Below, in pieces: positions 4,879 through 30,263 of a stretch of 64,000 nucleotides of DNA. Location: positions 6,703 through 70,702 of the forward strand of contig CAUZDW010000015.1 in the NCBI GenBank assembly GCA_963578825.1. Reading direction: 5' to 3'. The translations under genes were made by a program, and so were the position numbers. The stretch is from Vicinamibacteria bacterium (GTDB lineage: Bacteria; Acidobacteriota; Vicinamibacteria; Fen-336). The notes beneath the pieces were generated by a model. The model was not told the origin of the DNA. It searched no databases and was given only the letters and a program-made list of their open reading frames with translations. Positions within the stretch are counted from its first letter, which is position 1. Every line of letters starts with the position of its first letter.

Positions 4879-5668
4879 GTTGTCTCCGGTTCTCTGGGAC
4901 GTGGGTCTCGGCCGTGACCTCGCGATCCTGTGGGGTGACCTCGACGGGCGTCCGCATCGAGGTCGTGTCGCCCCGCGCCTCGCGCCACACCGCCAGCCAC
5001 GTGGCGGCAATGCCGGTCACCGCGCGAGAGTAGGAAAGCGAGGCCACCGCCCATGCGGGGGAACGGTAGTCGAGCCGACGATGGTCGACGAGGCGGCCGT
5101 CGCGAAACAGCTCCGTGCGGATCACCGGGGCCTGCGGGCGACTTCGATCGAGCATCGATTGCCACAGCTCGGGAAGGTGCTCGCGAGTAACCTCGAGGGC
5201 CTCGGAATCGTCGAGGACCACCGGCATCCGGTCGAGGTTGGCGTCGAGGAGCGCATAGTACTCGCGCGGCACCCCGGCGGGCCATCCCTCCGGGACGCCC
5301 ACGAGAATCGGATCGGCGATGTCGGCCGGGACACGCAGGAGCCCTCCGAGCCGCACGAGGCCCTCGCTGACCCGGCCCTCCTTCAAGAGCGTCACCACCC
5401 GGCCGGTCTCGTAGTCCAGCGCGGCCAGCGTCTCGGGTTGCAACCGCCCCCCGGGGATCTCCACTGCCAGCGCCCGGACGATGTCCGGCGGGAAGCGGTC
5501 GATCTCCCTCCGGATCTGCGTCTCTCGCTCCCCCAGCAGCCGCGACAGCGACCGCGGCAGCAGCCGGCGGGCGTCCCGAGACAGAGCCGTCATCGTCTCC
5601 GCGGGCCAGGCCAGGGCCGGATCCGGGAGGAGTGCGAGCAGGATGATCGGAAAGAGACTTCGCTTCAA
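4868..5668 (-). CDS. secreted hypothetical protein
   Basis: A TTG start (GTG alternative at 5674) gives MKRSLFPIILLALLPDPALA|WPAE, a clean Sec signal peptide. The same frame stays open upstream to the ATG at 5938, so a longer fused product cannot be excluded. Its end overlaps the purH start by 11 nt. Confidence 0.4.
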   Translation of the reverse strand: MKRSLFPIILLALLPDPALAWPAETMTALSRDARRLLPRSLSRLLGERETQIRREIDRFPPDIVRALAVEIPGGRLQPETLAALDYETGRVVTLLKEGRVSEGLVRLGGLLRVPADIADPILVGVPEGWPAGVPREYYALLDANLDRMPVVLDDSEALEVTREHLPELWQSMLDRSRPQAPVIRTELFRDGRLVDHRRLDYRSPAWAVASLSYSRAVTGIAATWLAVWREARGDTTSMRTPVEVTPQDREVTAETHVPENRRQHDR

Positions 5669-5670
5669 CG

Positions 5671-6263
5671 TCACTTCACGATCCGCGCCTTGAGCGACAC
5701 CTTTTCCCTTGCTCGAGTCCAGGCGGAAGTCCACCGCCCGGGCTCCCTTGTCACCCAGGATCTTCGCGGTCTGCTGTCCGATGAGCTGCCTGAAGCTCTC
5801 GTAGGCCGGCGCCTCCCCCTCGCCGAGGCACTGGCGCTCCTCCACGTAGCGCTGGTAAAGAGCCTGCACCTGCGCGTCGTCGGCTTCCACACTCCCGATA
5901 CGAAACTCACGACCGGTCCCTCCGCCGCCCGCGGGCATGCGGTGCTCCCGCTCGGGCGCCGGCGGGGGAAGGACGTCGGCCTTCAGCCCGTGGACACCGA
6001 AGGTCTTGCCCTCCTCCCGGGCCCGCAGTCTCTTCTGCCACAGCTCGTTGAACGTGTTGAAGCGGGCGGTGAGGGTCTGATAGCGGAAGCGCGCCGTGCT
6101 GTTGCTGATCTCCTGGTACGCGTACTCCCGAATCGTCTTCTCGACCCTGCGCTGCAGCTCGTTGGGCGGCTTGGCTTCTATGCCGGTGAAGAACAGCTCC
6201 CACTTGCGTATGCAGCTGGCGGATGTTGGTGTTGAGGAGATCGATGTCTTCGGAGAGACCCAT
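5671..6263 (-). pseudogene. conserved hypothetical protein with an apparent +1 frameshift; true pseudogene or sequencing indel
   Basis: The ATG at 6263 lies 2 nt after the TGA of the upstream ORF. It encodes MGLSEDIDLLNTNIRQLHTQ, then reads as garbage. The protein-like sequence continues in the +1 frame: WELFFTGIEAKPPNELQRRVEKTIREYAYQEISNSTARFRYQTLTARFNTFNELWQKRL...FRQLIGQQTAKILGDKGARAVDFRLDSSKGKG. Both alternative frames hit stops immediately before the TTG/GTG start of the next gene. Confidence 0.35.
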
Positions 6264-6265
6264 GG

Positions 6266-6673
6266 TCAGGCCTCCCCGCCCACGAAGATCCAGAAGAGCG
6301 GAAGCCACAGCTCGTGTCCATAGGGCGCCTTCTTGCCGTCGATCTCCACCTCGGTGCCCGTGCGACCACGCACGAGCTCGAAGAGGTCCCGCAGCGTTCG
6401 CGCGGCGCCCGGGTCGAAGGCGGCGTGGTGGACGCGATCGCCCGCCTCCCCGTCCTCCCGGTAGACCGGAGACAGACGTGCGAGCTCGACCGCGCGCTCG
6501 TATTCCGAGCCCTCGAAAGCCTCGAAGCTCAGGCCGACACGGACGGGCCGGGGGCGGCGGCCGGGATAGAGAAGGTCGACCATTTCGTCGGAGAGATGGG
6601 AGACGTCCTCCTCGTCCCGCGGCAACACCCGCGGCAGGCGGTCCGCAAAGTCCGGCGGGCGCTCCCGACGCAT
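6266..6673 (-). CDS. hypothetical protein (135 aa)
   Basis: Protein-like composition: EMVDLLYPG...YERAVELARLSPVYREDGE...ELWLPLFWIF. Divergent from selA. No family recognised. Confidence 0.35.
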   Translation of the reverse strand: MRRERPPDFADRLPRVLPRDEEDVSHLSDEMVDLLYPGRRPRPVRVGLSFEAFEGSEYERAVELARLSPVYREDGEAGDRVHHAAFDPGAARTLRDLFELVRGRTGTEVEIDGKKAPYGHELWLPLFWIFVGGEA

Positions 6674-6774
6674 CGGGCGAGGATACCACGGGCCCCGCCT
6701 CCGGCGGCAGGCCGCGCACCGGCCCTCCGGCGTGCTCGCTCGGCGGAGGGTTCGGGCGTGTATAGTCTTCTTCC

Positions 6775-8169
<1,395 letters not shown>

Positions 8170-8175
8170 GACGCA

Positions 8176-8526
8176 TCACAGCGCGTTCAGATCACCGTGT
8201 ACGGTCTCCCCCTCGAACAGGGTCAGAAGAACCCGGGTCTCGGAGATGTCGGCCGGATCGATCTCGAACACGTTTTGATCGAGATCGATCAGGTCGGCCA
8301 GTTTGCCGACCTCGATCGAACCGGTCCGGTCCTCGTGCTTGTTCAGGAATGCCGCATTGATGGTGAACGCGACCAGGGCCGCCAGCAGGCCGGCGAGGCT
8401 GAGGGGGGCCGAGGGCGTGGGCTTGCCCTTCGGCGAAAACGCCTGGACCAGGAGGACGACGAGGCCCGTCGCGGCCACGATCATCGCGGGGACGATCGGC
8501 CTGAGGTCCAGCTCGCCGCCGCTCAC
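8176..8526 (-). pseudogene. chimeric ORF: about 50 codons of the nuoN 5' end fused in-frame to about 65 codons of an amidohydrolase 3' end
   Basis: The start overlaps the nuoM stop by ATGA, as expected for nuoN, and MSGGELDLRPIVPAMIVAATGLVVLLVQAF is a NuoN-like first TM. The tail TINAAFLNKHEDRTGSIEVGKLADLIDLDQNVFEIDPADISETRVLLTLFEGETVHGD is the canonical amidohydrolase C-terminus. No further NuoN sequence occurs in any frame before convergent selA. Confidence 0.6.
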
Positions 8527-10061
8527 CGCTGCACCTCGCCGGGCACCGACTGCAGATCGGCGCCTGCGGCGGCAACCGACTTGGTCTTGTCATGCACTTG
8601 CAGGACGAGGGCGTCGGCCGCCGGCTCGATGCGCCTGGTGAAGTAGGGGCTGGCCACGCCCATGATGATCGCGAGGGCGACCAGGGGGACGAGGATCACC
8701 GCCTCACGAAGGCTGAGGTCCGAGAGCTTCCGGTTCTTCGGGTGGGTCACCTCTCCATGGAACACCCGCTTCACGAGCCACAGCATGTAGGAGGCCGCCA
8801 GGACGACGCCCAGAGAAGCGAACACCACGAGGGTCGGACTGAAGGGCCACGCCCCGACGAGGATCAGGAACTCGCCCACGAAGCCGTTGAAGCCGGGCAC
8901 GGCGATGGACGAGAGGCTGATCATCAGGAACACCGCCGCGTACCAGGGCATCACCGACTTGAGGCCGCCGAACTCCGAGATGAGCCGGGTGTGGCGCCGG
9001 TCGTAGAGCATCCCCACCAGGAAGAAGAGCGCCCCGGTGGAGATGCCGTGGCTCAGCATCTGGAAGACCGAGCCGACGAGGCTCGTGGTGGTGCAGGCGG
9101 CGATCCCGAGCATCACGAAGCCGAGGTGGGACACCGACGAGTACGCCACGAGCTTCTTCAGATCGGGCTGGACCAGCGCGACGAGGGCTCCGTAGAGGAT
9201 CCCGATGACGGCCAGAACGGCGATGAACGGGGCGAAGCGCATCGCCGCATCCGGGAAGAGAGGAAAGGCGATTCGCAGGAAGCCGTAGCCCCCCATCTTC
9301 AGCAGCACCCCAGCCAGGAGGACCGAGCCCGCCGTCGGCGCCTCCACGTGAGCATCGGGCAGCCACGTGTGGAACGGGAACATCGGGACCTTGATGGCGA
9401 AGGCCAGGGCGCAAGACAAGAAGAGCCAGGTCTGGATCGCCGGGTCCACCGGGACCGCCACGAGGGCGGCCAGATCGAAGGAGCGCACGCCGGCCACCCG
9501 GTACAGAACGAGGAAAGCGACCAGCATCACCACGCTGCCGGCAAAGGTGTAGAGAAAGAACTTCACGGCGGCGTAGATGCGCCGCTCGTGCCCCCAGACC
9601 CCAATGAGGAAGTACATCGGGATGAGCATCGCTTCCCAGAACACATAGAAGAGGAAGAGGTCGAGGGCCACGAAGACCCCGATCATCCCCGCCTCGAGCA
9701 ACAGCATGAAGATGATGAACTCGCGCACGCGCTTTGCGATGGAGCTCCACGACCCCAGGAGGGCCAGCGGCGTGAGGAAGGTGGCGAGTACGACGAGCCA
9801 CAGGGAAAGCCCGTCGATGCCCACGTGGTACGAGATCCCCCAGTCCGGAATCCACGGCGCCCGTTCCACGAACTGCATGCCCGCAACGTCCTCGAAACCG
9901 CGAACGAGGAGAAGCGACAGCCCGAAGCCCACGGTGGAGAAGACCAGGCCGAGAATCTTCTGCAGGGTCTTCGACTCGCGCCGGGTCACCGCGATGGCCA
10001 GCGCGCCCACCACGGGCAGGAGAATCAGGAGCGTGATCAGGTGTTGGTTCAGGACACTCAT
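8523..10061 (-). CDS. nuoM: NADH-quinone oxidoreductase subunit M
   Basis: 512 aa antiporter-like subunit. Motifs FELMLIPMYFLIGVWG, HTWLPDAHVEAPTAGSVLLAGVLLKMGGYG and KKLVAYSSVSHLGFV. Confidence 0.9.
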   Translation of the reverse strand: MSVLNQHLITLLILLPVVGALAIAVTRRESKTLQKILGLVFSTVGFGLSLLLVRGFEDVAGMQFVERAPWIPDWGISYHVGIDGLSLWLVVLATFLTPLALLGSWSSIAKRVREFIIFMLLLEAGMIGVFVALDLFLFYVFWEAMLIPMYFLIGVWGHERRIYAAVKFFLYTFAGSVVMLVAFLVLYRVAGVRSFDLAALVAVPVDPAIQTWLFLSCALAFAIKVPMFPFHTWLPDAHVEAPTAGSVLLAGVLLKMGGYGFLRIAFPLFPDAAMRFAPFIAVLAVIGILYGALVALVQPDLKKLVAYSSVSHLGFVMLGIAACTTTSLVGSVFQMLSHGISTGALFFLVGMLYDRRHTRLISEFGGLKSVMPWYAAVFLMISLSSIAVPGFNGFVGEFLILVGAWPFSPTLVVFASLGVVLAASYMLWLVKRVFHGEVTHPKNRKLSDLSLREAVILVPLVALAIIMGVASPYFTRRIEPAADALVLQVHDKTKSVAAAGADLQSVPGEVQR

Positions 10062-12031
10062 GACCAGAGGAGATAGCCCAGGAGCGCCACAGCTCCCGCG
10101 AGGATGAGCAGCACGTACTGGCGCACGAGCCCGGTCTGCAGCGGACCAAGCGTCGCCGCCAGGGCTTTCGTCATGGAGCCGGCACGATTGACGGCGCCGT
10201 CGATGAGGCGGGCGTCGATCTGCTCCCAGAGCAGGGCGCGGCTCCCGTCGATCACCACCCGCCGGACGAATGCGTTGTAGACGTCATCCCAGTAGTACTT
10301 CGCCGCGAAGATCCGGAGCGCGGGACGGAGCGAGGAGGCGATGCTCGCCCGGGCGCCGGGAAGGGCCAGGTAGAGGTAGTAGGCGATGAGGATCCCCGCG
10401 ATGGCGGTGAGAGTCGCCAGAACGGGCAGCCACGCGACGTGGGCGAGATGCCCGTCGCCCACGCGAAACACCGGTCCCACGATCTCCGGGATCGAGACGA
10501 GATGCCACCCCTCCGGCTGGCCCAACTCCCCCGGTCTCCCGGGCAGCGGTATCCCGAAGCCCCCCACCGCCGAGGCGATGGCGAGAAGCACGAGGGGCAC
10601 CACCATGAGCCACGGCGACTCGCGCACGTGGTGCTCGGCATCGTCCCCGCCACGGAAGGTCCCGAAGAAGGTCAGGAAGACGAGCCTGGCCATGTAGAAG
10701 GAGGTCAGGAGCGCGGTGAAGAGACCGATCCCGAAGAGCACGGGATGCCCGAGAGCGGCCGCGAGGATCTCGTCCTTGCTGAAGAAGCCAGCGAAGAACG
10801 GGATGCCTGCAATCGCCAGGGTCCCCACGAGGAACGTCCCGAACGTCCACGGAATCTTCGTCCTGAGGCCGCCCATCCTCGTCATGTCCTGCTCGCCGGA
10901 CATGGCGTGGATCACCGAACCCGAGCCGAGGAAAAGAAGAGCCTTGAAGAAGGCGTGGGTGTAGAGGTGAAAGACCCCCACGCCGAACGCGCCCATGCCG
11001 CACGCCAGGAACATGTAGCCGAGCTGGCTCACGGTGGAGTAGGCGAGGACCCGCTTGATGTCGGTCTGGACGAGAGCGATGGTGGCGGCCATGAGCGCGG
11101 TCGCGGCGCCCACGACCGCGACGGTCATCATCGCCGTTTCCGACACGTGATAGAGCGGGCCGAGCCGAGCCACCATGTAGACTCCGGCGGTCACCATCGT
11201 CGCGGCGTGGATCAGCGCCGAGACCGGCGTCGGGCCCTCCATGGCGTCGGGAAGCCAGACGTGGAGCGGGATCTGGGCGCTCTTGCCGGTCGCCCCGATG
11301 AACAGGAGGAGGCACGCGATCGTCGCGGGACCGAACTCCCACAGCCTCTCGGGAGCCAGCGAGCCGGCGTTGTCGGCGATGTCCACCAGGTCGAGGCTTC
11401 CGAAGGCGTGGAACATGAACGCCATGCCGAGGATGAGCCCCACGTCGCCGATGCGGTTCACGATGAAGGCCTTGAGGCCCGCGGCCGACGCGCTGTCCTT
11501 GCGGTACCAGAACCCGATCAGGAGGTAGGAGCACAGGCCCACCCCCTCCCACCCCACGAACATCAAGGGGAGGTTTCCGCCCAGGACCAGCAGGAGCATG
11601 AAGAACGTGAAGAGGTTGAGGTACGAGAAAAAACGGACCCGTTCCTCGTCGTGGGCCATGTAGCCCAGCGAGTAGATGTGGATGAGCGCGCCCACGCCGG
11701 TGACCACCAGGGTCATGAGCGAGGAGAGCGGGTCCACGAGAAGGCTGAACGGCACGCGGAAGCCCCCGGCCTCCATCCACTCGAACCCCAGATAGGGCTG
11801 GGAGAACCTCAGGCCCGTCGGGCCTGCCACCAGGCCGTAGAGCCGCGCCGTCGTCCAGGCCGAAAGGCCGAACGCGATGAGCACGGTGGCGCAGGCGAGC
11901 CACCCGGCGCCGCTCTCTTCCTTGTCCCTCTTGATCCAGTCCCCGAAGAGGGCCAGGACGACGAAGCCGAGAAGCGGCAAGAGAAGTACAGCGATGGGCA
12001 GAACGGTGTCGAGTTTGGTCAGCTCGAGCAC
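10058..12031 (-). CDS. nuoL: NADH-quinone oxidoreductase subunit L
   Basis: 657 aa. Motifs HVWLPDAMEGPTPVSALIHAATMVTAGVY and KRVLAYSTVSQLGYMFLA, with a long C-terminal extension typical of NuoL. Confidence 0.9.
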   Translation of the reverse strand: MLELTKLDTVLPIAVLLLPLLGFVVLALFGDWIKRDKEESGAGWLACATVLIAFGLSAWTTARLYGLVAGPTGLRFSQPYLGFEWMEAGGFRVPFSLLVDPLSSLMTLVVTGVGALIHIYSLGYMAHDEERVRFFSYLNLFTFFMLLLVLGGNLPLMFVGWEGVGLCSYLLIGFWYRKDSASAAGLKAFIVNRIGDVGLILGMAFMFHAFGSLDLVDIADNAGSLAPERLWEFGPATIACLLLFIGATGKSAQIPLHVWLPDAMEGPTPVSALIHAATMVTAGVYMVARLGPLYHVSETAMMTVAVVGAATALMAATIALVQTDIKRVLAYSTVSQLGYMFLACGMGAFGVGVFHLYTHAFFKALLFLGSGSVIHAMSGEQDMTRMGGLRTKIPWTFGTFLVGTLAIAGIPFFAGFFSKDEILAAALGHPVLFGIGLFTALLTSFYMARLVFLTFFGTFRGGDDAEHHVRESPWLMVVPLVLLAIASAVGGFGIPLPGRPGELGQPEGWHLVSIPEIVGPVFRVGDGHLAHVAWLPVLATLTAIAGILIAYYLYLALPGARASIASSLRPALRIFAAKYYWDDVYNAFVRRVVIDGSRALLWEQIDARLIDGAVNRAGSMTKALAATLGPLQTGLVRQYVLLILAGAVALLGYLLWS

Positions 12032-12032
12032 G

Positions 12033-12344
12033 CTATCCCTTCAAGAGGTTGAACGCGTCCAGGTCCAGCGTGTCCTTGTGCCGATCGAGCGCGATGACGA
12101 TGGCGAGCCCGACCGCCGCTTCCGACGCGGCCACCACCATGACGAAGAACACCAGGACCTGGCCGTCGAGAGTGCCGTGTGCCCGGCTGAACGCCACGAA
12201 GGCCAGGTTCACACCGTTCAGCATGAGCTCGATGCACATGAGCACGGTGATGACGTTGCGCCGGAGGAAGACGCCAAGGACACCGAGGGCGAAGAGAACG
12301 AGGCTCAGCAGGATCGCGTGGTGGACGAAGCCGGGACTCTCCAT
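12033..12344 (-). CDS. nuoK: NADH-quinone oxidoreductase subunit K
   Basis: 103 aa: [53 protein letters not shown] took the internal ATG at 12342-12344 as the start; the ORF track extends upstream into garbage. Confidence 0.85.
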
Positions 12345-12348
12345 GACG

Positions 12349-12843
12349 CTAGAGCTCCTTCTTCGCCAGCACCACTGCTCCCACGAGGGCAGCGAGGATG
12401 AGGATGGAGGTGGCCTCGAAGGCGTAGAGGAACTGCGGCGAGAAGAGGATCCGGGCCATCTCGACGGTCGAGGCATCGAAGCTCGGCGCCGGCGCCAGCT
12501 CGAAGCGCAGCAGGACCGTCCCCGCCTGGAGGACCAGGAGCGCCACCAGGGCCAGCGCCAGGCCACGCAGGGTACGCGCGCCTTCGCCGGGGCCGTCCTC
12601 CTCTCGTTTCACGTTCAGGAGCATCAGGACGAAGAGGAAGAGCACCATGATCGCGCCCGCGTAGACGATCACCTGCAGGACGGCGATGAAGGGCGAGCCC
12701 AGGAGCCCGAAGATGACCGCGACCGAGCAAAGGGTCACGATGAGGGCAAGGGCCGAGTACATCGGGTTGCGCTGGGAGATGACGACCACTGCCGAGGCGA
12801 CGGCGATGGCGGCGAAGGCGTAGAAGAGGATCGCGTCCATCAT
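12349..12843 (-). CDS. nuoJ: NADH-quinone oxidoreductase subunit J
   Basis: 164 aa: [72 protein letters not shown]. The start overlaps the nuoH stop by ATGA. No nuoI lies between nuoH and nuoJ. Confidence 0.8.
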
Positions 12844-13874
12844 CAACCCGAGATCGCCACCCAGGCGGCGAACACCATGACCCAGACGGCCACCAGCGGA
12901 ATCAGCACCTTCCACCCCAGGTGCATGAGCTGATCGTAGCGAAAGCGGGGCAGCGTGGCCCGCAGCCAGATGAAGACGAAGAGGAAGAAAGCGACCTTCA
13001 AGCCCCACCACACGAAGCCCAGGGGGAACCCGGCCAGGGTCTCCGGCATCCCGGGGATGCCCGAGTGCCAGCCGCCGAGGAAGAGGTTTGCGAGCAGCAC
13101 GGTCACGGTGATCATGTTGATGTACTCGGCCATCTGGATGAGCGCGAAGCGCATCGACGAGTACTCTGTGTGGAAGCCCGCCACGAGCTCGCTTTCGGCC
13201 TCGGGGAGATCGAAGGGGGTCCGGGCGACCTCCGCCGTGGCTGCGAGGACGTACACGAGGAAGGCGGGGAAATGCAGGAAGACGTTCCAGTTCAGGAACC
13301 ACCCCGACTGGTCTGCAACGATGTCGTTGATGCGGAACGACCGGGCGGCCATGATCAGGGTCACCCAGGAGAACCCCAGCGCGAGCTCGTAGGAGAACAT
13401 CTGAGCCGACGACCTGAGGCCGCCGAGGAGCGAGTACTTGTTGTTGGCGGCCCACCCTGCGATCACGATCCCATAGACCCCGATGGCCGTCACAGCTAAG
13501 ATGAAAAGCAGCCCCACCTCGATGTCGGCGATCTGGATCTGAAGCCTCCGGCCGAAGGCCTGGAAGGGCGGGCCGTACGGGATCACCGCCGTCGCCAGGA
13601 GCGCCGTCGCCACAGCCACCACCGGAGCCGCCAGAAAGGCCCACTTGTCGGCTGCCGCGGGCATCGCCTCTTCCTTGAAGAAGAGCTTGATCCCGTCGGC
13701 GACGGGCTGGAGGATGCCGAAGGGGCCGGTCCTGTTCGGGCCGAGCCGATACTGCATGAGGGCGAGGGTGCGCCGTTCGACCCACGTCATGAGCGAGAAA
13801 CCCCCGAGCAGCGCGCTGATCACGATGACGATGGTGACGACGGCGATCAGGAGCTCCTCGGCCAGGGATGTCAC
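12843..13874 (-). CDS. nuoH: NADH-quinone oxidoreductase subunit H
   Basis: 343 aa: MQYRLGPNRTGPFGILQPVADGIKLFFKEE...FDLPEAESELVAGFHTEYS, a canonical NuoH/ND1. Confidence 0.9.
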   Translation of the reverse strand: MTSLAEELLIAVVTIVIVISALLGGFSLMTWVERRTLALMQYRLGPNRTGPFGILQPVADGIKLFFKEEAMPAAADKWAFLAAPVVAVATALLATAVIPYGPPFQAFGRRLQIQIADIEVGLLFILAVTAIGVYGIVIAGWAANNKYSLLGGLRSSAQMFSYELALGFSWVTLIMAARSFRINDIVADQSGWFLNWNVFLHFPAFLVYVLAATAEVARTPFDLPEAESELVAGFHTEYSSMRFALIQMAEYINMITVTVLLANLFLGGWHSGIPGMPETLAGFPLGFVWWGLKVAFFLFVFIWLRATLPRFRYDQLMHLGWKVLIPLVAVWVMVFAAWVAISG

Positions 13875-15706
13875 GCGGGGACCGCCTTGCCCGTCCTGGC
13901 CCCGGCGCTGGCCTTCGCCTTCGCCTTTACTTCTTCAAAGGTGGGCGCCACCGACTTCCAGCAACGCTTCTCGCGAACGTGGTACTCGAACTCCTCCCGA
14001 AACTTCGTGAGCGACGACCGGGGAGGAGCGATTGCGGCGTCCCCGAACGGGCAGACCGTCTTTCCCGCGATCGAGTCCGTGATCTTCCAGAGAAGGTCCA
14101 GGTCCTTCTCCTCCGCCTCGCCCGCCTCGATTCGCTCGAGCAGCCGCAGCATCCAGCCCGTCCCCTCCCTGCAGGGGGAGCACTTGCCGCAGGACTCGTG
14201 CTTGTAGAAGTACGAGAGGTTCTTGGCCATCCACACCATGCAGGTGGAGTCGTCCATCACGATGGTCCCCGCCGAGCCGAGCATCGAGCCCGCTTTGGCC
14301 ACGCTGTCAAAGTCCATGGCGATGTCGATCTCGTCCGGCGTGAGGACCGGGGTCGACGAGCCCCCGGGAACCACCGCCTTGAGCTTGCGGCCGTTCCTGA
14401 GCCCCTGGGCGTATCCCTGATCGAAGATCAGGTCACGGAGGGTGATCCGCCCCATCGGGGCCTCGTAGCTTCCCGGACGCACGACGTGGCCGCTGATGGA
14501 GTAGAGCTTGGGTCCCCCGTTCTTCTCGGTCCCGTAGCTGGCAAACCACTCCGCCCCCCGCTCGAGGACGAGAGGCACGTTGGCCAGCGTCTCCACGTTG
14601 TTCACGATCGTCGGACAGCCGTACACCCCGACCACCGCCGGGAAGGGAGGCTTGATGCGAGGCTGGCCGCGCTTTCCTTCCAGGGACTCGATGAGGGCCG
14701 TTTCCTCGCCGCACTCGTACGAGCCGGCGCCGCGATGGACCCACACGTCCACGCCGGTGCCGAGCACGTTCTTGCCGACGATTCCCGCCGCCCGCGCCGT
14801 GGCGAGTTCCACGAGGGTGCGCGCACCCTCGTGGAACTCGCCACGGATGTAGATGTAGGCCGTCTTCGAACGGATCGCGTGGCACGAGACGACGATGGCC
14901 TCGATGAGCCGATGCGGGTCCCGCTCGAGGATCACGCGGTCCTTGTAGGTGCCAGGCTCGCTCTCATCGGCGTTGACGCAGAGATAGCGGGGCTTCGGGT
15001 TGTCCTTGGGCAGGAAGCCCCACTTCATCCCCGTGGGGAACCCGGCCCCTCCGCGACCGCGAAGGCCCGAGCGCTTGACCGTCTCGATGATGTCCCCGGG
15101 CTCCAGCTTCAGCCACTCGCCCAGCTTCGCGTAGCCCCCGGAGGCCTTGTACACGTCGATGGAGGTGGAGTTCTCCTTCCAGACGTTCTGAAAGAGGATG
15201 TGCTCGCCGGGGCTCTTCGGCCAGTCGAAGGTGCGCCGAACCGTCTCGCCGGCGAGGACGTGGTCGATGTCCGATTCCGAGGCGTGCTCGAGCCACTCGC
15301 CGTTCACCTGCACGGCCGGCGCCCCACCGCAGGCGGCGAGGCATTCGACCTCCTTGACCGTGAACTTCCCGTCCCCGGTGGTGCCCCCGGCTTCGATCCC
15401 GAGCTTGCGGCAGGCGTGCCCGAGGAGGCCCTCCGAGCCGCCGAGGGCACACGACAACGTGGTGCAGACCTCGATGAGGGTCTTTCCCTTCGGCTGGAGG
15501 TGGAACATCGTGTAGAAGCTGGCGGTGTCCTTCACCTGCGCGGGGCTCAGGTCCAGAAGCGTCCCGACGTACTCCATCGCCTCGGGGCTGATCCAGCCCT
15601 CCTGCTCCTGAACCAGCCGGAGCGCCGGCAGGAGGGCGGAGCGCTTCACCGGGTAGCGGGCGACGGTGTCCTCGAAGGTCTTCAGGTTGTCGGGGGTGAG
15701 CTCCAT
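13871..15706 (-). CDS. nuoEF: fused NADH dehydrogenase flavoprotein module, NuoE-like thioredoxin-fold [2Fe-2S] domain plus NuoF
   Basis: N-terminal 170 aa carry NuoE motifs CTTLSCALGGS...ECLAACGGAPAVQVNG. The same frame continues without a stop into NuoF: GRGGAGFPTGMKWGF, CNADESEPGTYKDR, ESCGKCSPCREGTGW. I took the start as the MELTPDNL ATG at 15704-15706, 4 nt after the nuoA stop. The stop overlaps the nuoH start by ATGA. Confidence 0.85.
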   Translation of the reverse strand: MELTPDNLKTFEDTVARYPVKRSALLPALRLVQEQEGWISPEAMEYVGTLLDLSPAQVKDTASFYTMFHLQPKGKTLIEVCTTLSCALGGSEGLLGHACRKLGIEAGGTTGDGKFTVKEVECLAACGGAPAVQVNGEWLEHASESDIDHVLAGETVRRTFDWPKSPGEHILFQNVWKENSTSIDVYKASGGYAKLGEWLKLEPGDIIETVKRSGLRGRGGAGFPTGMKWGFLPKDNPKPRYLCVNADESEPGTYKDRVILERDPHRLIEAIVVSCHAIRSKTAYIYIRGEFHEGARTLVELATARAAGIVGKNVLGTGVDVWVHRGAGSYECGEETALIESLEGKRGQPRIKPPFPAVVGVYGCPTIVNNVETLANVPLVLERGAEWFASYGTEKNGGPKLYSISGHVVRPGSYEAPMGRITLRDLIFDQGYAQGLRNGRKLKAVVPGGSSTPVLTPDEIDIAMDFDSVAKAGSMLGSAGTIVMDDSTCMVWMAKNLSYFYKHESCGKCSPCREGTGWMLRLLERIEAGEAEEKDLDLLWKITDSIAGKTVCPFGDAAIAPPRSSLTKFREEFEYHVREKRCWKSVAPTFEEVKAKAKASAGARTGKAVPA

Positions 15707-15710
15707 TGCG

Positions 15711-16061
15711 CTACCAGTCCATGGCTCCGACTCTCCATTCGTAGACGAAGCCGACACCGAGGACGAAGAAGAAGCCGCCCATGACGCTCAGGCCGTAGAC
15801 GCCCAGCTCGTCGAGGATGAGGGCCCACGGATAGAAGAAGGCCGTTTCCACGTCGAAGAGAATGAACAGCATGCACACGAGGTAGAACTTGACCGGGAAC
15901 CGCTCCCGGGCTGTCCCCACCGGGGGCACACCGCACTCGTACGTGCTCAGCTTCCCCTCGTCCGGACGAGGACGCCCCAGGAGGTTCGACATGGCCAGGG
16001 TGAAAACGCCGAAGCCGACTGCTACCGCGCCCAAGATCACGATCGGGAGGTAGCTGGGCAT
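15711..16061 (-). CDS. nuoA: NADH-quinone oxidoreductase subunit A
   Basis: 116 aa: YECGVPPVGTARERFPVKFYLVCMLFILFDVETAFFYPWA. First gene of the minus-strand operon; divergent from pyk. Confidence 0.85.
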   Translation of the reverse strand: MPSYLPIVILGAVAVGFGVFTLAMSNLLGRPRPDEGKLSTYECGVPPVGTARERFPVKFYLVCMLFILFDVETAFFYPWALILDELGVYGLSVMGGFFFVLGVGFVYEWRVGAMDW

Positions 16062-25572: not shown

Positions 25573-26007
25573 ATGGAACGGGCATCGTACACCCCACTCC
25601 CGGGGGTTGTAGTATTGAAGATGGTGGCAGCGGGAACGCATACATGGGTCTGCCCGGCGTGTGGTCGCCGGGTGCCGCTTCGGGTCGGATCGTGTCATTG
25701 CGGGATGTCACGGGAGCGGGCCGAGGAGCTGGCCGCAGCCCAGGCTCGAGCTGTGCAGCCAGCGGCGCGACCCGCGCGACCGACGGCGCGCAGCCCCCGG
25801 ACGCCCAGCGAGCCGCTCCCGGGCGACGTCAAGGCTCTCCTGGTCGGAGCCGCTCTGGTGGCGCTGGCGGGGATCGGCTGGCTCGCCTTCGGGCCCCCAT
25901 CCGACCCGATCGTCCCGGTGCTCGGGTTCGTCGACACCGGCCCTCCCCCCGCCCCGCGACCCTCGCCTCCCCCAGAGCCGGCTTTCAAGCTCCCGTGGTG
26001 GAAGTAG
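25573..26007 (+). CDS. hypothetical zinc-ribbon membrane protein
   Basis: WVCPACGRRVPL...GSCHCG is a CxxC...CxC ribbon. It is followed by a Pro/Arg linker and one TM (LLVGAALVALAGIGWLAF). Confidence 0.35.
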   Translation: MERASYTPLPGVVVLKMVAAGTHTWVCPACGRRVPLRVGSCHCGMSRERAEELAAAQARAVQPAARPARPTARSPRTPSEPLPGDVKALLVGAALVALAGIGWLAFGPPSDPIVPVLGFVDTGPPPAPRPSPPPEPAFKLPWWK

Positions 26008-26056
26008 GCTCGGGCGCCGACACCCCTTCTCGCACGCGTCCACCGAAGACGAGCTC

Positions 26057-27148
26057 ATGAGGCGCGTCCGGCGATGGGCTGCGCTGCTCGTGTACCTTGC
26101 GGCCGTCCTGGTCTTCTTCGAGATGAGTGCGCGAGCCGTGCTCTCGCGCAAGGAGATGTTTCGCCTGGTGGCAGGTGTGGACGAAGCCTCGTCGCGGCTT
26201 CGCTGGGCGCGGCGGCAGGATCGCCGTCCCCTGGTCCAACCCTTCGACGTCTACCATCCCGTTCGAGGCTGGGCGCTGCGACCCGGGTTGCGCGACGTCC
26301 CGGCGTTCGACGGCAAGCGGTTGAGCTCCACCGACCGCGGCTACCGGGGGCGCGACAGTGTGGGCGATCAGGATTCATCCGGACGAGTGCGAATCGCGGC
26401 CCTCGGCGACTCGTTCACATTCGGCGAAGACGTGGGCGACGACGAGACGTGGGTCCGACAGCTCGCAATCCTACATCCGGGCGTCGAGACGGTGAACCTC
26501 GGGGTCCACGCCTACGGGCACGACCAGATGCTCCTCACGCTACGCGAGGAAGGCCCTCGGCTGCGCCCGGACATGGTGCTCGTAGGTTTCGTGCACATCG
26601 ACCTCGAGCGCAACCGGACGGCGTTCTTCGACTACGCCAAGCCGAAGTTCGTCCTCGAGGAGGGATTGCTCGAGCTCGCCAATGTCCCGGTCCCGACTCC
26701 GGAGGAGCTCCTGGCAAGCGAAAGGTGGCGCTCCAAGTTCCTCGATCTCATCTCCATGCTGCGCGCCCGGGTGTGGGACCGCACGGGCCTCGAAGCGCGG
26801 GCCCGCGACGCCCTCGGGGTGGCCCTGCTCGAGGCCCTTCGCGACGGGGCAGACGACGTCGGGGCCCGACCCGTGTTCGCCTACCTGCCCATCCTCGATG
26901 AGATCGGAGCATCGGATCCTTCGCCGAGCGAACGCTTCTTCGAGGCGACGTGCCGTGCCTCGGGGCTGGCCTGCGTCAACCTGCGCCCGGCGTTTTCTCT
27001 CCGAGTCCGGGCCGGCCAGCGGCTCAAGAGGCGCGGACACTGGGGGCCGACGGAGCACCGCGCCGCAGCAGAGGACCTCCTCGCCCTGCTCAGCGAACGA
27101 GGTCTCGTGCCTCCTCCCGGCGCGACCGACCGTCCCGTGCAGCACTGA
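26057..27148 (+). CDS. SGNH/GDSL-family hydrolase
   Basis: An N-terminal TM or signal (MRRVRRWAALLVYLAAVLVFF), block I motif RIAALGDSFTFGEDVG (GDSx), and a C-terminal catalytic DxxH-like HWGPTEH. The ATG at 26057 was chosen; the track ORF starts far upstream in garbage. Confidence 0.6.
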   Translation: MRRVRRWAALLVYLAAVLVFFEMSARAVLSRKEMFRLVAGVDEASSRLRWARRQDRRPLVQPFDVYHPVRGWALRPGLRDVPAFDGKRLSSTDRGYRGRDSVGDQDSSGRVRIAALGDSFTFGEDVGDDETWVRQLAILHPGVETVNLGVHAYGHDQMLLTLREEGPRLRPDMVLVGFVHIDLERNRTAFFDYAKPKFVLEEGLLELANVPVPTPEELLASERWRSKFLDLISMLRARVWDRTGLEARARDALGVALLEALRDGADDVGARPVFAYLPILDEIGASDPSPSERFFEATCRASGLACVNLRPAFSLRVRAGQRLKRRGHWGPTEHRAAAEDLLALLSERGLVPPPGATDRPVQH

Positions 27149-27947
27149 GGGTCGGCGCCGAACTCGACGATGGCCCTTCCGCGCTCAGCACACCGGGCTG
27201 GGTGGAGGGCGGCGTCAGCGTGTGCTCGAAAGCGGCGCGCACGAGCAGGGCGACAGCGGGGTCGACAGACAGCCTGGACGCGGTCAGGTGCTCGCGCTTC
27301 AGGCTCTCTGCCATGAGGATACCGCCGTGGCGGAGCGATGGGACGAGCGCGTGAATGATCTCGTGGGCGATGACCCATCCGAGCGCGACGCCGAGATTGC
27401 GGCGCGCGAGCACCAGGAGGTCGTTCGTCGACGAGCTCTGCGGCAACCCGAGCGCGGCGCGGACGCTGCCCACGTGGATCCAGACGAGGGGGTGGCCTCG
27501 AACCTCAGTCGGTGCCGCGCCCAGCACGGGACGTCCGGAGTCCCGGCGCACCAGGAGACGATTGACCAGGATGATGCGGATCTCCCCCGGGCGGGCGGCT
27601 TCGCCACCGCTGTCTTGACGCCAGATAACGTCGAGACCGACCTTTTCCAGGATCGATCGAACCTCGGATCGCGCAACCCCGCCCAGGCCCACCGCCGCGC
27701 TGCCGACGTCCAGCCAGGCCAGGAGCACCGCGGGGGTGCCGGAGGGTGCCGGGACCAGCCGCGAGGGCCATGCTGTCTTTCCGCGATGCGGCTCGGGGTC
27801 GCCCGCCCCCGCCGTGTTCGGGACAAGGGCGATGGCCAACGCCAGGATCTCGGCAGTCCCTCGTGGCGCCACAGGCCCTCCTCTCGCCCGCCCCGCGATC
27901 CACCTCATCCCAGGGCGGAACGCTCGACACAACTCGTGACGTGTCAC
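27090..27947 (-). CDS. putative zinc metallopeptidase-like protein (HExxH)
   Basis: VIAHEIIHALVP provides HExxH. Composition is moderately protein-like. The 3' end overlaps the convergent SGNH gene by about 59 nt. No family assigned. Confidence 0.3.
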   Translation of the reverse strand: MTRHELCRAFRPGMRWIAGRARGGPVAPRGTAEILALAIALVPNTAGAGDPEPHRGKTAWPSRLVPAPSGTPAVLLAWLDVGSAAVGLGGVARSEVRSILEKVGLDVIWRQDSGGEAARPGEIRIILVNRLLVRRDSGRPVLGAAPTEVRGHPLVWIHVGSVRAALGLPQSSSTNDLLVLARRNLGVALGWVIAHEIIHALVPSLRHGGILMAESLKREHLTASRLSVDPAVALLVRAAFEHTLTPPSTQPGVLSAEGPSSSSAPTLSAARDGRSRREEARDLVR

Positions 27948-28101
27948 TCAGGGAGACGCTCGGATGGTGCGCAGCGTTGCGTGAGTTGGCGGGAGAAGGG
28001 AGGGAGGCCCGGATGAGGGGCGAAGTCACTGAGAACGACTGGGTTGGGACGACGCCTGAGGCTACGGCGGGAGGCCTATCGGGGAAACTGGACGGCTCGG
28101 C

Positions 28102-30263
28102 TCAGCGCAGATCCGTCACCACGTACAAGTCAGACAAACGCCGGATCAGTGAGAAGGCCCAGGCCTCGCCCGAGTGGGCCACCGTCACTTTTGTGAGGCC
28201 AAGCACACCGGAGCGGTCGGGGGGAGCCAGATCGGCGACGTATTCGCTTCGGCCCGTCGCCATGTCCACACGCCAGAGGGCCTCGGGCATCTGGAGTATC
28301 CGGTCTCGGAAATAGACCCGGTCGTGCTCGTCCCAGGCCACGGCTCGCCACTCGGGCTCGGCCCCGGCGAGCGGGACGGGATCGCCGCCGGTTGTGGAGT
28401 ACACGCAGTGGGCCTCGCCGTGGGGGCACCGAGTCACGAAGCGGGTCCCGTCGGGTGAGAACGTGTTGGAGTAGAGGACGACGCCATCGGGTAGCGGCAG
28501 CGGTCGCGACTCCCCGCTCGCTGCATCGACGAGCCAGGAGGCCCATCGGCCGGACGAGTCGCGGGTGGAGACGTAGATCGTCTTGCGATCCGGAAGCCAC
28601 CCGGCCATCTCGTGTGTCGCGGCTCCGGGGATCCGGCACTGGCGGGACTCTCCGGCGCCGGTGGGCACGATCTGAACGTGGTCGGGCGTTGTCACCGGAA
28701 TCATGAGGGCCCACTTCCCGTCGATGGAGAGGCTGGTCCCCCGCCCGGGGCCCAGCCTCATGGGCAGAGAGCCGTCGGTGGACCGCAGGTAGGACGTGTA
28801 GTCCGGCCCGCCTCCGTCACCGCTCTCGACGAGGAGAACCTGGCTCCCGTCGGCCGACAGCCCCTCGGCGCCGGAGACGTCGAGCCATGTGAGCTCGTGC
28901 AGCTTCTCCTGAGCGGTGCGCCCCAGGAACGTCTCGCCTCCGGTCCCGGTGCGCTCCAGGAGAACCCGGCCGTCGGGAGCAATGTCGTGCAGCACGAGCC
29001 GGCCCATCGCCGCGTGGATGTGTCGGACCCGCCCGTCTCGCGTGAGGGCATGGAGCTCGCTCTTCACTCCGACGCGGGCAGCGGTGAACCAGACCTCGTC
29101 GCCGCCCGGCGACCATGCCAGCCCGTCGAGGCTGCCCCAGGGGCCCGAGACCGCCAGGCGCTCGCCGTCGCGATTCATGATGACGACCTGCCCGCGATCG
29201 TCGCCGAACATCATGTGCTCTTGCAGCGCCAGCAGCTCTCCATCCGGGGAGAGGCGGAGGCGACTCACGTCGTTCGTCTCGCCGAGGGAGCGACCGATCG
29301 GGTACTCGAGTCGGAAACGGTTTTCCTCGATGCGCACCACCGCGAACTCTGATGCGTCGGCCGTCCAGTCGGCTGCTCGGATGCCCTGCGAGACCTCCCG
29401 CGGCGGCCCGCCGGCCAGCGGTGCCCGAGCCAGGACCCGGCGCCGGAGAAAAGCCACCTCCGAATCGGAGGCCGCCACGATGCGGGAATTGACGATGCCG
29501 AGCGACCGGCTCTCACGGGCGCCACTGTTCATGAGCTGCATGTCCCGGGGGCGACCTTCCCACGACGCGACGTAGACGACCTGATGCTCCGGGCCGAACC
29601 GAGCCGGGGTGATGGCACCCCGATGGAAGGTGATCCTCTGGAAGCTGGGGGCGGGGCCTCGCTCTGCGGGAGACCACCGAGACGATAGGCAAAGGCAAGA
29701 GCGCTGAGGAAAACCACGGCGGCGGCGAGCACCAGCGCCACCGTGCTCCAGCGCGGCTCGACGGCAGCGCCTGGCGCGAGCATCGGGTCTCCCACACCGG
29801 CAGCGCTGCCGTCGGTGGACTGGCCTTCCGCGACGGGTCGCGGCCAGTCGTGTACCGTTGCGGGCGGCACCGCCCTCTCCACAGAGCCGCCCACCCAACG
29901 ATAGCCCCGGCGGGGCAGGGTCTCGACGTAGCGAGGGTGCAGGGCACTGTCGCCGAGGGCGGAACGGATCTGGCGAATGCAGAAGTTCAGCGATTGCTCG
30001 AAATCGACGAAGGTCCCGGCGGGCGAGACCGCGGACTGGATCTCTTCGCGAGTGACGACACGCCCGGGCTGGTCGACGAGCAGGGCCAGGACTTTGAAGG
30101 GCTGGGGCTGGAGGCGAACGAGGGCTCCGTTACGGCGCAGCTCGCCGCTCTTGACGTCCATTTCGAAGGCGCCAAAGCGGACGGCGTGAACCACGCCACC
30201 CTCCCGGGCCTGCGAGCTCGATTCCGCCATGCTGTGCACCCCGTTCCGGGCCGGGGCCGACAA
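28102..30263 (-). pseudogene. CadC/OmpR-type winged-helix transcriptional regulator with a TM segment and a periplasmic TolB-like beta-propeller; single-base frameshift, or sequencing indel, in a poly-C tract
   Basis: The 30263-29529 frame carries a trans_reg_C domain (LVRLQPQPFKVLALLVDQPGRVVTREEIQSAV...LPRRGYRWV) and a TM (WSTVALVLAAAVVFLSALAFAY). The 29898-28102 frame carries SFQRITFHRGAITPARFGPEHQVVYVASWEGRP... plus propeller repeats. The frames meet in gaggccccgcccccagc at 29640-29660. One extra C would restore ...SEAPPPSFQRITF. Confidence 0.65.

Follow-up and report, generated by a model that had tools for sequence, protein, structure and literature searches.

NuoN, the ND2-type subunit of complex I (PF00361; TIGR01770), is a protein of about 480 amino acids with 14 transmembrane helices and a Proton_antipo_M domain. 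Selection with aminoglycosides or in the laboratory readily yields nuo mutants of Pseudomonas and E. coli. The locus described here resembles such spontaneous loss-of-function alleles in that the gene for one complex I membrane subunit appears to be inactivated while the operon is otherwise intact, and differs from them in that it belongs to a wild uncultured marine population and carries a foreign gene fragment at the scar. As a molecular event, the closest described counterparts are microhomology-mediated deletion and homology-facilitated illegitimate recombination (HFIR), as defined in PMC3240628. With both the locus has in common one illegitimate join at a short imperfect microhomology, and with HFIR also that selA, a homologous gene with a patch of extra divergence, contains or adjoins the opposite end. 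The lesion pattern is compatible with HFIR rather than diagnostic of it.

In the window, which is the whole 64-kb stretch of DNA that was analysed, the place of nuoN is occupied by a chimeric ORF, nuoN'::'amidohydrolase (8176..8526, minus strand), of 116 codons with a GTG start that overlaps the nuoM stop. Codons 1-51 (8374..8526, minus strand) are the 5' stump of nuoN, and the encoded residues 1-51 agreed at 51/51 positions with P0189, P0190 and P0193, which are intact NuoN proteins (484 aa) from sister strains. Codons 52-116 correspond to the C-terminal 65 residues of an Amidohydro_3 enzyme of the YtcJ-like type, and together with the stop codon they make up a 3' remnant of this gene (8176..8373, minus strand). 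In profile searches, ORF residues 47-110 matched positions 409-472 of the 472 positions of Amidohydro_3 (Pfam, E 7e-14) and residues 5-67 gave a weak match to NuoN (NCBIfam, E 1.5e-4), while PF00361 (Proton_antipo_M) had no match in the 116-aa ORF (Pfam). The sequence-only reading, that nuoN starts correctly and then turns into the C-terminus of an amidohydrolase, is therefore borne out by both profile libraries and by sister NuoN. Two of its details had to be corrected: the coupling to nuoM, described as ATGA, is a GTGA shared by the nuoM stop and the start of the ORF, and the distance to the selA stop, given as 7 nt, is 6 nt (8170..8175), which is the spacer between the convergent stops, as the ORF ends with its stop codon at 8176-8178 and selA ends on the opposite strand.

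The position directly after nuoM with overlapping stop and start codons, as well as the orthologous N-terminus, link the ORF to NuoN; however, the chimera is a remnant and not a member of this family. About 433 of the 484 NuoN residues are gone, the whole Proton_antipo_M domain among them. Likewise, the 65-residue tail aligns end to end with the C-terminus of YtcJ-like amidohydrolases (Amidohydro_3, PF07969), environmental members of which are 70-82% identical to it, but the chimera keeps only ∼11% of a protein of ∼580 aa, and the N-terminal and barrel parts are absent. When full NuoN and a full amidohydrolase were compared with all 64 kb by tblastn, only the NuoM/NuoL paralogues, the 5' stump and a 63-residue tail were returned. 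In agreement with the sequence-only reading, no further piece of NuoN was found in the window, nor was a second nuoL, nuoM or nuoN, or the 5' or barrel part of the amidohydrolase. Scans for promoters and terminators, tRNAs and Rfam families around the site gave nothing relevant.

The join could in principle have been produced by an assembler or during binning, by linking the nuoN start, the amidohydrolase tail and selA from different molecules. A dip in GC content across the fragment and the assignment of the amidohydrolase relatives to other phyla are in line with such a chimera, which the sequence-only reading had also put forward. However, the same junction was found on at least 10 contigs from at least 6 read sets, assembled by three pipelines (MEGAHIT, Logan and JGI). 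The exact 116-aa protein was called on at least 8 contigs and was also present at the ends of L010 and L011. Assemblies with the exact ORF comprise ERZ27247690, ERZ27247695 and ERZ27247711 (ENA MEGAHIT), SRR9039920, SRR9039929 and SRR9039963 (Logan), and 3300031803, 3300031804 and 3300060026 (JGI), and it also occurs in two NCBI MAGs. Genomes that carry the fusion include GCA_963578495.1 and GCA_963582615.1 besides the source genome. With the junction in the middle, 900 bp were 100% identical in nine sequences. In addition, both flanks are native and syntenic and lie just ∼200 nt apart, and the parents have only 7-12 nt in common at the join, which is far below any assembler k-mer and would not suffice to create a false path in a de Bruijn graph. 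As at least 10 contigs that were assembled independently have the identical junction, the assembly chimera was rejected, its probability being close to nil, and it is concluded from these assemblies that the junction is a real strain-level knockout of nuoN and no assembly error. A literature search on the sample identifiers gave no match.

One of the junction-bearing contigs, L001, was 99.6% identical to the window over 11 kb. With the exception of a mismatch at 9352, L001 differs from the window only in its final ∼150 nt. It is therefore counted as another independent assembly, and not as clear proof that a diverged strain carries the fusion. At this contig end (L001:1-150, compared with window 10916-11064 inside nuoL) 43 differences were observed, and the other 10.9 kb were near-identical; the divergent stretch represents an artefact of the contig end or else a strain variant produced by recombination.

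Relatives of the locus were found via SelA homologues graded by identity. SelA identity to the window was 96% for L095 and L096, 93% for L097 and 82% for L181, and L179, a contig of 379 kb, was ∼94% identical to the window at the nucleotide level. All five contigs carry a full nuoN convergent on selA, which encodes 484 aa where complete. The spacer between nuoN and selA measures 1-49 nt in L095, L096, L097 and L181, and in L179 it consists of a 460-nt repeat element. As to the earlier suggestion to compare relatives for whether selA normally lies downstream of nuoN, selA adjoins nuoN directly in the close relatives L095, L096, L097 and L181. L012, the nearest representative in a NuoM search of genome contigs, is more distant (NuoM 74%) and has a full 483-aa nuoN, followed by two other genes and then selA; the order selA, orf135, orf356, purH is common to L012 and the window. 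By tblastn, no amidohydrolase tail was detected at the locus in L012, L095-L098, L179, L180 or L181, within this limited sampling. Looking up the tail matches P0002 and P0009 and the NuoN-like P0048 gave short or unrelated contexts only. Separately, an 85-aa nuoN-like ORF was observed on a single contig (L093:17-274; JGI 3300037193). It tracks NuoN for ∼68 residues and then stops, with unrelated DNA and a BON-domain gene beyond it, and may represent a second, independent truncation of nuoN or a chimeric contig.

The extent of the lesion was determined by comparison with L095. In blastn, the window aligned with L095 at 95.7% over 7000-8150 and at 98.9% over 8368-10100, and the 217 nt in between (8151-8367) had no L095 counterpart and replace 1367 nt of L095. 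Compared with the sisters, the window lacks codons 52-484 of nuoN as well as the short spacer before selA, and ∼1.35 kb have become ∼0.2 kb. On the nuoN side, the window follows the sisters (L095, L096 and L097) through ...GCG GCC CTG G, after which it has T at 8372 where the sisters have C; beyond 8372 both read CGCG and then diverge completely. The T at 8372 is the first amidohydrolase-type base, the amidohydrolase relatives reading ...GCC CTC GTG GCG TTC ACN... at the join. The microhomology GCCCTGG(T/C)CGCG is common to sister nuoN (AALAAT) and the amidohydrolase relatives (ALVAF). Because the window, sister and amidohydrolase sequences agree and diverge there, the crossover lies inside this imperfect 12-nt microhomology (8368..8379, minus strand), with the reading frame kept. 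This narrows the breakpoint previously estimated at about 8360-8380. The boundary of the foreign piece on the selA side could only be placed somewhere in 8151-8178, because the last SelA codons vary among all relatives; the likeness of the selA tail of the window to that of L097 suggests a position just after the selA stop.

These comparisons bear on the nature of the rearrangement, which was first described as a deletion of at least 2 kb. A lesion does exist, but the nearest relatives show a replacement instead, and a deletion of ∼2.85 kb or more would fit only with an unsampled intermediate that carried the whole amidohydrolase between nuoN and selA, which is considered likely. The deletion reading is only partly supported, as none of the sampled relatives, within a limited sampling, has nuoN, the amidohydrolase and selA as successive genes. 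An inversion or a reciprocal translocation was considered and dismissed, as native syntenic DNA resumes within ∼200 nt on either side.

The inserted piece is foreign by composition. The 189 nt past the junction have a GC content of 0.582 and a GC3 of 0.794, compared with a GC3 of 0.88-0.98 in native genes (binomial p = 0.009), and a GC content as low as that of the fragment occurs in only 0.4% of the 189-nt windows of the 64 kb. The loci of the amidohydrolase relatives have a GC content of 0.43-0.62, mostly 0.54-0.62, and some of these relatives are labelled Woeseia or Gammaproteobacteria. In a metagenome search with the 67-aa amidohydrolase part as the query, the nearest relatives among the matches listed were L099 (82% aa identity) and L092 (83% nt identity), with the alignment reaching the stop; no donor above 82% aa identity was present among the matches listed. 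The end of the fragment coincides with the stop codon that is natural for the family. Many matches of the tail are short proteins, and it was considered whether amidohydrolase tails are a recurrent mobile cassette. This was rejected: sufficient upstream DNA was present for 61 relatives, and 59 of these have full-length ORFs of ∼580-600 aa. The nearest nucleotide relative among the matches listed (L092:193-624; JGI 3300010967) is itself degenerate and N-terminally truncated. It has lost ∼48 internal residues including the FGSDW region and adjoins a Ser/Thr kinase gene.

On the other side of the fragment, selA (6775..8169, plus strand) encodes 464 aa (TIGR00474, E 2e-158) and runs towards the nuo cluster in convergent orientation. 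Its 3' end is rich in substitutions that occur in the window alone, with 20 in 1050 nt (7100-8150) versus 7 in 2100 nt (5000-7100), a ∼6-fold density in the last ∼1 kb of selA (Fisher p = 1.6e-5). Changes unique to L097 likewise increase in the selA 3' end. The denser substitutions could simply reflect a faster-evolving region; possibly they are the trace expected of an imported tract anchored in selA. Divergence from L095 on the selA side (7100-8150) was also observed to rise from ∼1% or less to 4-7% towards the junction, and on the nuoM side (8531-8617, nuoM 3' end) it amounted to ∼3.6% in the first 250 nt. This rise on both flanks suggests a recombination tract around the lesion.

The 460-nt element in the nuoN-selA spacer of L179 (L179:11456-11915) is non-coding and MITE-like, with internal hairpins and, at its ends, imperfect inverted repeats of ∼45 nt. 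The same contig has a second, partial copy (L179:201-323), and related sequence follows selA in L180 (2800-2876) and L098 (8790-9050); no convincing copy was found in the window. Because this element sits in the spacer of L179 and related sequence is present in L180 and L098, the nuoN-selA spacer is regarded, from these contigs, as an insertion hot spot in the clade.

From these data we infer the following order of events. In this lineage, or else in a closely related donor, a complete amidohydrolase gene acquired horizontally would once have faced selA in convergent orientation. An illegitimate join guided by the microhomology would then have connected nuoN codons 51-53 to a point ∼65 codons before the amidohydrolase stop, removing all DNA between nuoN and the amidohydrolase tail. 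The join might have come about by a deletion within the chromosome of at least ∼2.85 kb (1.30 kb from nuoN and ∼1.55 kb from the amidohydrolase), or during an import of donor DNA anchored by homology in selA, as in HFIR. A whole amidohydrolase beside selA is proposed because a random patch of 200 nt rarely ends near the stop of a gene, and both the insertion hot spot and the excess of substitutions in the selA 3' end fit the acquisition of a whole gene. Among the matches listed and the loci of the relatives, no contig has a full amidohydrolase beside selA or nuoN. Since there is no such contig and the best relative among the matches listed has 82% aa identity, the intermediate and the donor are hypothetical.

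Alternatively, ∼200 nt of random foreign DNA might have been ligated in one step into a break or gap in nuoN, by double illegitimate recombination or as filler during end-joining at a double-strand break, and a full amidohydrolase would then never have been present at the locus. A clean replacement of 1.35 kb by 0.2 kb relative to every sampled relative is what such a capture would produce, as is the lack of an intermediate among the matches listed and the loci of the relatives. However, the piece ends 0-6 nt from the natural stop of a gene of ∼1.75 kb, for which the chance would be well below 1% if the breakpoints were random, and the surplus of substitutions that only the window has in the 3' end of selA would be left unexplained. 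The one-step capture is therefore considered unlikely. A recent, strain-level lesion in an uncultured marine population of Acidobacteriota (Vicinamibacteria-like), which arose by insertion of a whole amidohydrolase gene and a subsequent illegitimate join and left nuoN as a pseudogene, is taken as a whole to be the best explanation, with a probability of roughly 80%.

The remainder of the nuo cluster is intact in the window. NuoM (8523..10061, minus strand) has 512 aa (TIGR01972, E 1e-184), and nuoL, K, J, H, EF and A follow on the minus strand (10058..16061), with nuoK at 12033-12344, nuoJ at 12349-12843, nuoH at 12843-13874, nuoEF at 13871-15709 and nuoA at 15711-16061. The nuoEF gene is a fusion of nuoE and nuoF into a single gene of ∼612 aa. 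Genes for NuoB, C, D, G and I were absent from the cluster and from the larger ORFs of the 64 kb scanned with Pfam. A general decay of the nuo operon, which would account for the missing B, C, D, G and I, was considered and rejected: the layout nuoA-EF-H-J-K-L-M-N is intact in L012 and L179, likewise without these five genes, and because it is common to both contigs it is taken to be normal for the lineage. At 25661-29898, several long ORFs (495, 444 and 598 aa) gave no Pfam hits with E <= 1e-5, and their coding signal was weaker than elsewhere in the window.

As judged from its sequence, the chimeric ORF would keep helix 1 of NuoN and part of the next hydrophobic stretch, followed by a non-catalytic amidohydrolase tail. 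Because the GTGA coupling to nuoM is kept, expression of the operon probably still yields the 116-aa peptide. We infer that it is neither a functional NuoN nor a functional amidohydrolase, that nuoN is a pseudogene and that the cluster cannot supply subunit N of complex I. The earlier argument that a second copy would be needed for NuoN to be made is logically sound.

When changes were polarised with L179, 19 synonymous and 11 non-synonymous changes were assigned to the window branch in the other nuo genes, which is far from neutral (p = 2e-5) and similar to the 18:12 of the flanking control genes, a set with too few changes for dating the event. This remaining constraint would mean either that the lesion is very recent or that the cluster is still useful with NuoN supplied from elsewhere. 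In L008 (ERZ27247711), which is otherwise 100% identical to the window, 53 nt are missing (window 14786-14838; L008:5273-5276). This deletion lies between GGCG direct repeats in the NuoF part and frameshifts nuoEF, which accounts for the 306-aa fragment predicted there. The operon may have been hit by a second inactivating mutation, or the assembly may be wrong at this point.

The same data were weighed against the possibility that the chimeric ORF is a functional new gene, for example a small membrane-anchored protein under selection, or that the complex works without a canonical NuoN and has a shortened membrane arm. The fusion is in frame with the GTGA coupling to nuoM kept, it is present across several samples, and the other nuo genes do not evolve neutrally on the window branch. 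An in-frame join, however, has a chance of one in three, and the ORF retains only profile positions 409-472 of 472, so that the upstream barrel region with the metal ligands of the family is absent. Moreover, all copies are 100% identical and provide no signal of selection on the ORF itself, and one assembly, L008, carries the additional frameshift in nuoEF. A functional chimera is thus very improbable. Purifying selection on the other nuo genes would be compatible with a complex lacking NuoN as well as with a role of the chimera; that this widespread strain actually runs A-EF-H-J-K-L-M without any NuoN, as a naturally shortened arm, or that the 116-aa chimera has a role of its own, is given very little credence.

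As genome biology, this is a known kind of lesion and ordinary pseudogene formation, of which the locus is a new instance. In an uncultured acidobacterium of marine origin, it represents a cleanly resolved natural inactivation of a gene through illegitimate recombination with foreign DNA, with a base-precise junction and with sister strains that supply the intact allele. If the deletion in L008 is real, decay of the nuo cluster has begun. Metabolic reconstructions for this population should not assume a working complex I from the nuo cluster, and a comparison of the two strains with intact and truncated nuoN, which have ∼99% identity in the surroundings of the locus, could help to show whether life in this habitat requires complex I.
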